A stretch of 64,000 nt of DNA, taken from positions 42,301-106,300 of the IMG/VR virus record IMGVR_UViG_2884152688_000003. The stretch is one strand, 5' to 3'. A program made the position numbers and the translations under genes. The stretch is from a virus (taxonomy: Duplodnaviria; Caudoviricetes). Below are positions 14,141-16,694 of this stretch, piece by piece; the first letter of the stretch is position 1; each line of letters begins with the position of its first letter. The notes under the pieces are model-generated. The model worked only from the letters and a program-made list of their open reading frames with translations. It made no database searches and was not told the origin of the DNA.

Positions 14141-16694
14141 ATGGTCTTTGGATCGATTGAAGAGTGTGAAGCTTATATAAAGAGTTGTATGACACAAACA
14201 ACCCCAGTTATGGCACAAAAAACTCAAGAAGAAGGAAAGAACATAATATCCGGACAGGTTGGTGGAATAACAGGAAGTTTGGCAAATTCAGTGTTTATAT
14301 TGGGAACATCAGCAAATTCAATGGAGGTAGGAATAGAGGATAGAGGTGGTGGAAATGATTATTCATGGACATCACAGGTTTATAGAACTCATTTCTTTCC
14401 GATGTACGGATTAGAGAAAGGCCACACATGGAATAGAGGTGCCACAACAATTATAGGTTTTTCAAGCGAGAAAACCCACGATTTTAATCGTGTGGATGAA
14501 AGCTTGTCAAATACACTGTAAGCATATAGAGAAATCTGTATGTAGTGAATACATAAAACTCATGTATTCCAATTAAGAAACTGAATTGCTGGAAATTCGT
14601 AAAGCTAACTTAACTACAACGCAAAGATAATACAAAACTTAAACGTGAATGTGGCGAGAGCAGAAAAAATAAGTTAGATGGCATAAGGTTAAACCCTAAG
14701 TGCTTTAAAATTGAAAATCAGCATCCAAGCCTAGAAATAGGAAGGTTCAACGACTATTCCTCTTGAGGGAAGTACATCACAAGCCATTGGTGATGGAAGT
14801 GGTTTCGCCTTAGCACGTAATGGTGAAGGATAAGATATAGTCTGTGCTTGCACGAAAGTGTAAGAAGTTCATAAGAGAACTGTATAGATAGTAGCGAATC
14901 TATATGAACAAACTTCACACAAAAAAAAGAAAGTATAATAGTTTTAATATTGTGTATAAAACTATTGATTTCGTACACTAAATAGCATATAATAAAATTA
15001 TGAATAATGAATACAGAGACTCAAAAACAACTGTTTCGTTAATCAATTATCATTTTGTTTTTTGTCCAAGATATCGAAGGAAAATATTTGAAGATTCCAA
15101 AGTAGATATTAGATTTAAATCAGTCATTCAAGAAATATGTATTGAGAATGATTGGGATATTATTGCAATAGAGACAGATAAAGAGCATTGCCATTTATTC
15201 ATAAATGTACAACCTATATATTCTCCTTCTGAAATAATGAAGATAATAAAAGGTATTACATCACGAAAATTAAGGCAAGAATTTGAACATTTAAGCAAAA
15301 TGCCAAGTGTTTGGACAAGGTCATTTTTTGTTTCAACTGCTGGTGATGTATCTAGTAAAATAATTAAAAGATATGTTGAAAATCAAAGAACAAGATACTG
15401 ATTATACGTTAAGGAGGTGACAGAAATGAAAAAGGCACATAAGATACGTATTTACCCAAATACTAAACAACAGATACAATTTCAAAAAACATTTGGATGC
15501 GTAAGATTTTACTGGAATTTTATTTTAAACCAAACTCAAACAAATTATAAAATGAAACAAGAAGATGAAATGTATTTAGAAGACAAGACAACATATGCAA
15601 TTCTTAAAAAACAAGAAGAATATTCATGGTTAAAAGAAGTTGAAGCTCAACCATTAAGCCAAGTGACTATGGATTTAAGAAAAGCATACAAAAATACATT
15701 TAAATCTAAGTTTGGGCTCCCTAAATTCAAGAGTAAAAAATACTCTAAAAAATCTTATAGGACAGCAGCTGGAATGAAGGTGAATGAAAACTACTGTTAT
15801 ATATCTAGAGTTGGGTGGGTAAAAATGGCGGAGAAGTTACGATTTAAAGGAAAATTAATGAATGTAACAATCAGTCAATCTAAATCTGGAAAATACTTTG
15901 CAGCATTCTTAGTAGAAACTGAAAATGTTGAACTAGAACCAGTCGAAAATAAAATTGGCTTAGATTTAGGTCTTTCTCATTTCTGTGTAGCTTCCACAGG
16001 AGAAAAAATAGATAACAAAAAATTCTATCATTCTCTTGAAAAGCGACTAATAATTGAACAAAGAAAACTTTCAAAACGTTTAGAGATAGCCAAAAAACAT
16101 AATCGTAAATTAGATGATTGTAAAAACTATCAAAAACAAAAAAAGAAAGTTGCTTTAATACATGAAAAGATATTCAATCAAAGAAATAATTTTTTACATC
16201 AAATTTCTTCAAGAATAACTGATGAAAACCAAGTCATTTGTATAGAAGATTTAAACGTAAAAAACATGATTAAAGATCATAAATTAGCGAAATCAATAGC
16301 CGATGTATCGTGGAGTGAATTCGTAAGACAATTAGAGTACAAGTCTAAATGGAAAGGAAGAAAACTTGTTAAGGTAGATAGATTCTTCCCTAGTTCTCAA
16401 ATTTGTTCTAAATGTGGACACAATGATGGCAAGAAAGAGTTAACCATAAGAGAATGGACTTGTTCTAATTGCAACACGAATCACGATAGAGATATCAATG
16501 CGAGCATAAATATTAAAACCGAAGGACTTTCGGGGTTAGCTTAGTAAATTTACTATCAATAGATGGTATTACCTAAGAACCCCACGATTTTAATCGTGTG
16601 GAGTGTCAGGATTACATGGGAATCATGGGCTTCTGGAAACTTAGATAAGATATTCTTAGAAACAATGAGTGGTCTAGGAGTACCTATAGGATAA
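14141..16694 (+). CDS. HK97 gp10-like tail protein split by IStron-1 (exon 1 14141-14454, exon 2 16610-16694; 132 aa spliced)
   Basis: Joining ...ACAATTAT|GATTACATGG... reads [37 protein letters not shown] in frame; [10 protein letters not shown] motif. Confidence 0.75.
14455..14920 (+). ncRNA. Group I intron ribozyme core of IStron-1
   Basis: P AATTGCTGGAAA 14584, Q AATCAGCATCC 14716, R TTCAACGACTA 14746, S AAGATATAGTC 14832. P1: TTAT|AG pairs with CTGTAA 14516-14521, with U.G at the splice site. Confidence 0.9.
14965..14993 (+). promoter_or_regulatory. SigA-type promoter, probably giving a leaderless tnpA mRNA
   Basis: TTGATT-17nt-TATAAT; the ATG starts 7 nt after the -10 element and has no SD. 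Confidence 0.6.
15000..15401 (+). CDS. tnpA: IS200/IS605 Y1 HUH transposase
   Basis: [14 protein letters not shown] motif [17 protein letters not shown] and catalytic YVENQ. Confidence 0.95.
   Translation: MNNEYRDSKTTVSLINYHFVFCPRYRRKIFEDSKVDIRFKSVIQEICIENDWDIIAIETDKEHCHLFINVQPIYSPSEIMKIIKGITSRKLRQEFEHLSKMPSVWTRSFFVSTAGDVSSKIIKRYVENQRTRY
15417..16544 (+). CDS. tnpB: RNA-guided endonuclease TnpB (canonical RuvC D-E-D, Zn ribbon)
   Basis: KIRIYP...[37 protein letters not shown]. Confidence 0.95.
16545..16625 (+). ncRNA. Predicted omegaRNA 3' part of IStron-1 (scaffold to 16609, guide from 16610); probably extends into the tnpB 3' end
   Basis: Inferred from known TnpB biology: right end plus about 16 nt of flank. 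Confidence 0.55.

Follow-up and report, generated by a model that had tools for sequence, protein, structure and literature searches.

An apparently complete IS605-type IStron splits a tail-module gene in a 64-kb stretch of phage DNA

A 64-kb stretch of phage DNA (the window; positions 42,301 to 106,300 of IMG/VR record IMGVR_UViG_2884152688_000003) carries at 14455-16609 an element, here termed IStron-1, that is very probably an autonomous group A IStron of the CdISt1 type, an IS200/IS605 element that would act both as a transposon and as a group I intron along the lines of the model set out below. The element interrupts a gene of the tail module, its tnpA and tnpB genes retain intact catalytic motifs, covariation among related introns supports the helices of its ribozyme, and homologues of the interrupted gene reveal the split.

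Results

Coordinates are given in window numbering, and all parts of IStron-1 lie on the plus strand. The element is 2155 nt long, is preceded by ATTAT (14450-14454, with TTAT at 14451-14454) and has TCAG (16606-16609) as its 3' end; target duplication is absent, the flanks (...CAATTAT and GATTACA...) having no common repeat. An earlier note, made from the letters alone, had described a 2155-nt element after TTAT that ends in TCAG and carries identical end hairpins around a group I core, tnpA and tnpB, and the sequence bears out these coordinates. The hairpin CCCACGAT-TTTA-ATCGTGTGG occurs at 14475-14495 and again at 16581-16601 with 21 of 21 nt identical, within a 25-nt repeat that is 96% identical, and the folding of both end hairpins as single-stranded DNA beats that of shuffled sequences (z -3.7 on the left, -2.8 on the right). 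The core is backed by covariation and homology and both genes by Pfam. The parts of the element and the two exons that flank it are as follows.

14141..14454, plus strand: exon 1 of the split gene, 314 nt (104 codons and 2 nt); matches phrog_11057 positions 1-105 of 140, expect value (E) 2.4e-22
14455..16609, plus strand: whole IStron-1; as DNA the transposon from left end to right end, as RNA the intron from 5' to 3' splice site
14451..14911, plus strand: group I ribozyme of IA2 type (intron portion from 14455), from helix mapping, covariation, the Rfam alignment of a homologue and homology
14471..14495, plus strand: left end, with guide AAAA (14471-14474) and the left imperfect palindrome IP_L (14475-14495; 8 bp, bulged T14493, loop TTTA)
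14496-14497, plus strand: AT dinucleotide 3' of IP_L
14912..14920, plus strand: 5' strand of the closing stem, ACTTCACAC, 9 bp with 16596-16604 by co-folding
15000..15401, plus strand: tnpA, Y1 (HUH) transposase, 133 amino acids (aa); Pfam Y1_Tnp, 1e-37
15426..16544, plus strand: tnpB, predicted RNA-guided nuclease, 372 aa from the ATG; Pfam; the open reading frame (ORF) opens at GTG 15417
16505..16609, plus strand: presumed 3' part of the omegaRNA scaffold, three stem-loops (SL1 to SL3) in series, SL3 being the right-end hairpin
16577..16609, plus strand: right end, with guide GAAC (16577-16580), the right imperfect palindrome IP_R (16581-16601) and cleavage site TCAG (16606-16609)
16596-16604, plus strand: 3' strand of the closing stem, GTGTGGAGT
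16609, plus strand: terminal G, presumed omega-G of the intron
16610..16694, plus strand: exon 2 of the split gene, 85 nt (G, 27 codons and TAA); matches phrog_11057 positions 116-139 of 140, E 0.0024

On the evidence of its homologues, the gene is truly split by IStron-1. Joining the exons gives 399 nt, that is, 132 codons and a stop, with the junction inside a codon (AT/G); both exons match one family, phrog_11057, and the claim that removal of the element restores a 132-aa ORF thereby stands. It had also been claimed that ORF callers miss exon 2, which is right in part: a mechanical ORF list does show a 43-aa ORF at 16563-16694, and in the protein database the locus is represented by the truncated 126-aa product alone (P0001), so that gene calling missed the split. 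By BLASTP, exon 2 shares 13 of 25 residues with the C-terminus of the homologue P0002 (E 3e-8). A profile search over 1.84 billion representatives (E<=1e-3) returned 54 proteins; 46 of them match through profile position 130-133 of 133, and thus through an exon-2-like C-terminus, and eight fall short, among them the window's own 126-aa product, whose match ends at 107. Because 46 of the 54 extend this far, the family does not end near 14521, the one outcome that the earlier note had named as speaking against a second exon. Among the early-ending homologues P0007, P0047 and P0051 were inspected, and P0007 looks frameshifted rather than intron-split. In the family alignment (A4), '...TWNRGATTI' followed by the junction Met fits the conserved 'TW.RG.TNIM', the junction Met itself being conserved, and exon 2 terminates in the family's 'GVPIG'. 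In Peptostreptococcus anaerobius this gene stands unbroken within a matching series of genes (products of 269, 259, 141 and 139 aa, followed by the tape measure protein).

The identity of the host protein is drawn from several faint similarities. Pfam found no family in the truncated 126-aa ORF, and one of 40 homologues matches PF04883 (HK97-gp10_like) at 3.5e-6. The structural model of the homologue P0008 (predicted local distance difference test, pLDDT, 89.6) aligns with the SaPI1 neck chain 9mu2_P at Z 7.9 over 105 of 109 residues (root-mean-square deviation 3.6), the next row having Z 5.1, and its matches in BFVD are named 'HK97 gp10 family', 'tail component' and 'neck' at weak scores (E 0.006-0.4). 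Foldseek gave no match against the PDB at E<=0.001, and the family profile returned only two rows from PDB sequences (E 0.41 and 2). The split gene lies directly upstream of the tape measure gene. With low confidence, we suggest that the protein is probably an HK97-gp10-type tail-completion or neck virion protein; position, together with the weak fold and Pfam similarity, makes 'tail gene' an acceptable shorthand. The proposal that virion assembly depends on splicing would follow only for an essential protein in a viable phage.

Both proteins of the element resemble characterized relatives over their functional residues. TnpA aligns over its full length with the ISHp608 TnpA (2a6m; E 4.9e-31), with the H-x-H motif ('dkeHcHl' versus 'dkdHiHi') and the C-terminal Tyr ('krYvenq' versus 'kqYienq') in register. 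TnpB aligns with the ISDra2 TnpB (8bf8/8exa; E 1.4e-70), with the D, E and D motifs of RuvC ('glDlGl', 'iciEdl' and a third aligned acidic motif) and the CxxC...CxxC zinc finger in register, and its Pfam matches are OrfB_IS605, the Cas12f1-like TNB domain and HTH_OrfB. We take the aligned HxH and Tyr of TnpA and the D, E and D of TnpB to be the catalytic residues.

The ends of the element can be compared with those described for IS608, in which the left cleavage site (CL, TTAC) lies 19 nt 5' of the hairpin foot and the right cleavage site (CR, TCAA) 10 nt 3' of it, the left and right guides (GL, AAAG; GR, GAAT) are the four bases 5' of each foot (Fig. 1 legend of PMC5934647), and an A-T dinucleotide 3' of IP_L forms base triples (PMC3201880, PMC5934647). 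In IStron-1, CL is TTAT and GL is AAAA, CR is TCAG and GR is GAAC, each guide stands immediately 5' of its hairpin foot, and CL is 20 nt from the foot. Relative to IS608, the final bases of cleavage site and guide have changed together at both ends (C:G to T:A on the left, A:T to G:C on the right), and this co-change supports the IS608-type pairing of AAAA with TTAT and of GAAC with TCAG that had been proposed from the letters.

The group I core motifs P, Q, R and S were seen by eye at 14584, 14717, 14747 and 14832, and an exact-motif scan of the window found P, R and S again only at 18945-19324, in a second IStron (IStron-2). The helices of IStron-1 were mapped as follows.

P1 14451-56/14516-21; P2 14523-30/14535-42; P2.1 14547-54/14562-69; P3 14577-83/14800-06
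P4 14587-92/14718-23; P5 14597-99/14712-14, with extensions; P6 14725-33/14738-45
P7 14750-56/14838-45; P7.1 14757-60/14768-71; P7.2 14775-80/14790-95; P8 14808-16/14823-29
P9 14847-53/14858-64; P9.1 14866-70/14877-81; P9.2 14883-89/14898-904; GAACAA 14906-11

We examined this structure in a MAFFT alignment (A3) of 11 related introns, namely the two copies of the window, six from genomes of the same family, the copy in OR847180, a Clostridioides phage copy and CbISt4 of Clostridium phage D-1873, with the 3' partners slid by 1-3 columns and 500 shuffles as controls. Standard pairs occupy 89.6% of 1112 cells, against 29.1-40.1% in the slid controls, and changes on both sides were found at 53 of 113 pairs, against 8-16. 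In the share of paired cells, in pairs or cells with two-sided changes and in covariation score, no shuffle (0/500) came up to the alignment; the count of further pair types does not exceed the shuffles, 244 of 500 reaching it. P5, P5b3, P6, P6a, P7.1, P9 and P9.1 are paired throughout (100%), and in P6, P7.1, P5a and P5b3 (95-100% paired) all varying pairs are compensatory, which includes all four pairs of P7.1; P7.2 is 91% paired with four of its six pairs compensatory. P7 and P9.1 are invariant and hence uninformative on covariation.

In P1, U14454 and G14518 form a wobble pair with base pairs on either side, the internal guide being CUGUAA, and the variants among close relatives follow the target, with TTAT-AG/CTGTAA in IStron-1, TTAT-TA/TAGTAA in IStron-2 and TGAT-TA/TAGTCA in the Clostridioides phage copy (the hyphen marks the insertion point). 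On the OR847180 copy, which is 76-77% identical, the Rfam group I model RF00028 reaches 66.4 bits, against a gathering score of 50; it places P2, P3, P4, P5, P8 and P9 in the same way and treats P7.1 and P7.2 as insertions. The ribozyme core is also 69.6% identical to the CbISt4 intron, in a match that overlaps an annotated 'Group I catalytic intron'. The class IA2 has been assigned to all IStrons (PMC4227781), and P7.1, P7.2 and P9.1/P9.2 in IStron-1 fit this class. In both IStrons the host frame stops ahead of the ribozyme core, at TAA 14519-14521 within the P1 internal guide in IStron-1 and at TAG 18870-18872, the first intron codon, in IStron-2; with such early stops ribosomes would not enter P3-P9. 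Comparable stop placement has been described for phage T4 introns.

Intron and transposon form one unit in IStron-1. The P1 loop, which precedes the ribozyme core, contains the left guide and hairpin, and the 3' splice site is at the same time the right end, so that the transposon ends enclose the whole intron. After P9.2 comes GAACAA (14906-14911) and then ACTTCACAC, whose 9-bp pairing with GTGTGGAGT stops five bases before the terminal G. The corresponding stem reads ACTCCACAT/GTGTGGAGT in OR847180 and RACCTC/GAGGTT in IStron-2 and the Clostridioides phage copy, and the stem thus covaries. OR847180 holds the same composite, 77% identical over 99% of the length with the same TTAT and TCAG ends in unrelated flanks, which argues for mobility as one unit. 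An alternative is that a free-standing group I intron first settled in the phage gene and that an ordinary IS605 element was later inserted by accident in its P9 region. Free-standing relatives of the core are indeed common in phages, 235 phage records matching it, and the contig has an intron-free IS200/IS605 element about 15 kb further upstream; however, the enclosure of the intron by the transposon ends, the recurrence of the composite in OR847180 and the combination of ATTAT...TCAG ends with the GAACAA junction, which is the published group A signature (PMC4227781), all stand against such nesting, and we regard it as extremely improbable.

OR847180 (L018, 'UNVERIFIED_ORG: Listeria phage LM 4-11-1') is the closest full-length relative of IStron-1 in the phage collection. 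The ORF in its 3' flank ends in a likely cell-wall sorting signal (IPLTGSNG..., read by eye), and this 4.9-kb contig may be non-phage DNA. The first ten bases of its 3' exon agree in nine positions with those of IStron-2, which raised the idea that the copy occupies the same tape measure site; this was rejected, the flanks giving no match at E<=1e-3 in tblastn with the window's tape measure and gp10-like pieces as queries.

The 3' part of the element is a candidate omegaRNA scaffold. Its last 105 nt (16505-16609) are predicted to fold into three stem-loops (z -3.2), the same three are predicted in the OR847180 copy, and the apex of SL2 covaries with one close homologue (ACUAUC/GAUGGU versus GCGCCC/GGGUGU). 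Positions 16596-16601 are common to the right-end hairpin and the closing stem, and the two RNA folds are therefore mutually exclusive; structurally, this may echo the splicing-versus-guide antagonism of the IS607-type IStron. Elsewhere, RAGATH-18 (RF03064) matches CbISt4 just 3' of tnpB at 61.7 bits (the two RAGATH-18 loci are L017 4298-4367 and L019 4765-4819) and, weakly, the IStron of Clostridioides phage ES-S-0173-01 ahead of its right-end hairpin (30.3 bits, below gathering); in both elements this is the expected position of the omegaRNA.

IStron-2 is likewise a group A element, 1895 nt long (18870-20764), which follows TTTAT, ends in TCAG and has GAACGA downstream of P9.2. The introns of the two elements share 80% identity, and the only gene of IStron-2 is a different tnpB (416 aa; 19443-20693). 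The tape measure gene is interrupted by it in phase 0 (16710-18869 and 20765-26875); both halves of this gene match phrog_10871, and the spliced product would have about 2756 aa. The left guide position of IStron-2 reads AATC, which does not fit TTAT, so that this element may depend on the TnpA of IStron-1 or be immobile. The plain IS200/IS605 element upstream of the window, at about 39.3-40.9 kb of the contig (C12; L003 485-2048), encodes a TnpA of 134 aa and a TnpB of 383 aa and lacks group I motifs; over its 3' part, this tnpB shares 73% identity with the IStron-1 gene.

The whole window, which lies in the 106.3-kb contig, appears to belong to one large phage, prophage or phage-plasmid. Its genes include those for a terminase, a portal, virion proteins, a Dit-like tail protein, the tape measure, minor tail and fibre proteins, an endolysin and, at 40101-43279, two to three tyrosine recombinases, and the opposite strand carries genes for a DnaE-type polymerase, NrdD/NrdG, dUTPase, RtcB, a ligase and a Dcm methylase, which score below the NCBIfam curated cut-offs except for the NrdD, NrdG and Dcm TIGRFAM models. 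Portal identity with the 131-kb phiCD211-type C. difficile phages is 34-35%, a distant relation. The G+C content of the window is 31%, and the host genome has 2.15 Mb. The closest homologue of the split gene comes from a genome of the same genus and is 99% identical to a Peptostreptococcus anaerobius scaffold; on this sequence evidence, the host is probably Peptostreptococcus.

Discussion

IStrons of group A have been defined by a set of structural rules (PMC4227781, Tourasse et al. 2014). According to the survey, they are inserted after TTGAT, ATTAT or TTTAT, end in TCAG at the 3' side and produce no target duplication; their IS part stands after P9.2, following a motif of the GAACGA/GAACAA type, within a balanced closing stem of 6-10 bp; and they carry an IS200-type (tyrosine/HUH) ORF A and an IS1341/TnpB-type ORF B, with a U at the end of the 5' exon paired to G in P1. 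IStron-1 has an IA2 intron at its 5' end, the ATTAT/TCAG boundaries, GAACAA with a 9-bp stem, an HUH and a TnpB ORF and a U.G pair in P1; it follows every published rule and therefore belongs to the known class, in agreement with its earlier assignment to the CdISt1 type. Group A-type IStrons are known from C. difficile, other Firmicutes and Fusobacteria (PMC4227781). CdISt1 (Clostridioides difficile) and EfISt1 (Enterococcus faecium) resemble IStron-1 in the IA2 intron, the ends, the GAACAA motif and the short closing stem, and also in size (2213 and 2140 nt, compared with 2155 nt), and the presumed host family of IStron-1, Peptostreptococcaceae, is that of CdISt1. IStron-1 differs from CdISt1 in that both of its ORFs are intact, whereas bioRxiv 10.1101/2023.11.20.567912 describes all eight copies in C. 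difficile 630 as lacking a full tnpA. Its sequence is also new: no full-length match in the phage collection exceeds 77% identity, and the intron part is 78-81% identical to the Clostridioides phage copy. In addition, its site is a virion gene and its carrier a large phage of the phiCD211-like kind; the phage-borne IStrons listed in the 2014 survey are of group B only, from C. botulinum phages (PMC4227781). IStron-1 thus adds to a described class a sequence that is new, has both genes intact and comes from a new host and phage. The published copy lists (PMC4227781, PMC3201880, PMC5934647, 10.1101/2023.11.20.567912, 10.64898/2026.03.11.711047) could already include close relatives.

Two other kinds of element share parts of this design. 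With IS608 and ISDra2, IStron-1 has in common the Y1 HUH TnpA, TnpB, subterminal hairpins with a bulged T, 4-nt guides, the AT after IP_L and a T-rich tetranucleotide target, and it differs from them in the ribozyme of about 460 nt between the left end and tnpA and in TTAT instead of TTAC. In CboIStron, an IS607-type element of group B, a single transcript is reported to hold both the intron and the omegaRNA (Zedaveinyte et al., bioRxiv 10.1101/2023.11.20.567912), as we propose for IStron-1; the two would also be alike in having the 3' splice site at the junction of scaffold and guide and three stem-loops, predicted in IStron-1, before the guide. They differ in that the transposase of IStron-1 is of the tyrosine (HUH) rather than the serine type, its target is T-rich rather than G-rich, and its 5' exon ends in the canonical U.

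By analogy with these published relatives, for which splicing, transposition and RNA-guided cleavage have been described, we propose a model that follows the IS605/IStron mechanism of the literature, including bioRxiv 10.1101/2023.11.20.567912. The ATTAT that ends exon 1 would serve as TnpA target and left cleavage site, as the presumed target-adjacent motif of TnpB and as the 5' strand of P1. TnpA would bind both subterminal hairpins, locate TTAT on the left and TCAG on the right through AAAA and GAAC, and move the top strand by single-strand 'peel and paste' transposition, with insertion 3' of (A)TTAT and no target duplication. The same boundaries would act at the RNA level as the 5' and 3' splice sites of the IA2 ribozyme: the last U of TTAT would form the U.G pair of P1 with the internal guide CUGUAA, the 9-bp stem (14912-20/16596-604) would close off the 1.7-kb ORF region and bring G16609 to the core, and splicing would join AT to G, yield the 132-aa HK97-gp10-like protein and silence the insertion. 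Alternatively, the 3' end of the transcript may be kept as an omegaRNA made up of the last 100 nt or more of the element and the 3' exon, in which the scaffold would end at 16609 and the guide would be the exon from 16610 onwards. TnpB with this omegaRNA would cut empty sites of the form TTAT/GATTAC..., and the element would be copied back.

Several observations weigh against this picture of IStron-1 and have to be set beside the evidence for it. The right cleavage point lies 8 nt from the hairpin, versus 10 nt in IS608. A look for public sequencing runs over 14141-16694 returned none, of RNA or otherwise. RAGATH-18 has no match to either IStron of the window. RF00028 does not match IStron-1 in the window, either at the gathering score of 50 bits or at E<=10 over 14300-16800, and the same Rfam scan returned only chance rows (Xist_exon1, a CRISPR repeat, MEG8), omegaRNA-type families being silent as well; this null result was the reason for testing the fold directly by covariation. 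RF00028 is silent also on the annotated CbISt4 intron, so that its miss of IStron-1 reflects the reach of the model and not the absence of the fold. P1 and P2.1 are only 55% and 49% paired over the 11 introns, largely because group B and distant introns cannot be aligned there, and the two helices are supported by only four to five close relatives. The structure under test was derived from IStron-1 itself and so has a built-in advantage over the slid controls, a bias that does not touch the compensatory changes. Finally, the search for an empty allele, advised in the earlier note, gave uninterrupted homologues, none of them near-identical in the collections searched and the closest 55-56% identical. 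Viral contigs gave 13 pattern matches and metagenome contigs 239, with no relative among either; genome contigs gave two loci, one 99% identical to P0002 and the other at 33%; and of 112 genomes of the family seven had a match, the window's own genome included, all uninterrupted and with a best identity of 56%.

It could be argued that IStron-1 is dead or does not splice, that the virion gene is inactivated and the phage a defective remnant, and that the intact look of the element merely reflects a recent insertion. Such a state would accord with the RF00028 miss, with the decay seen in the same phage in IStron-2, whose left guide position, AATC, does not fit TTAT and which has no tnpA, and with the report that near-identical copies in C. 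difficile vary widely in splicing efficiency (bioRxiv 10.1101/2023.11.20.567912). Yet every ribozyme helix pairs in IStron-1, tnpA and tnpB are full length with their catalytic residues, exon 2 is an open, in-frame stretch that retains the conserved C-terminus of its family, and the rest of the structural module is open. We consider a dead element improbable and favour an autonomous IStron that would still splice and transpose.

A bolder reading would assign three mutually exclusive roles to 16596-16601, as part of the DNA hairpin for TnpA, of the terminal stem-loop of the TnpB omegaRNA and of the helix that docks the 3' splice site. The element might then be a switch, in which the intron fold would prevail late in infection in the service of tails, and the omegaRNA with TnpB would act as a drive that cuts intron-less TTAT/GATTAC alleles of co-infecting or resident related phages; TnpA would, in addition, mobilise IStron-2 in trans. 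We offer this as a speculation that is conceivable, if doubtful.

The analysis corrects the annotation of two tail-module genes, the gp10-like gene and that of the tape measure of about 2756 aa, which are split and were miscalled as truncated or separate. It also adds an apparently complete IS605-type IStron to a group whose best-studied copies, those of C. difficile 630, all lack a full transposase. Because tnpA and tnpB are both intact, IStron-1 may offer a natural template for reconstituting the three activities of a tyrosine-transposase IStron.

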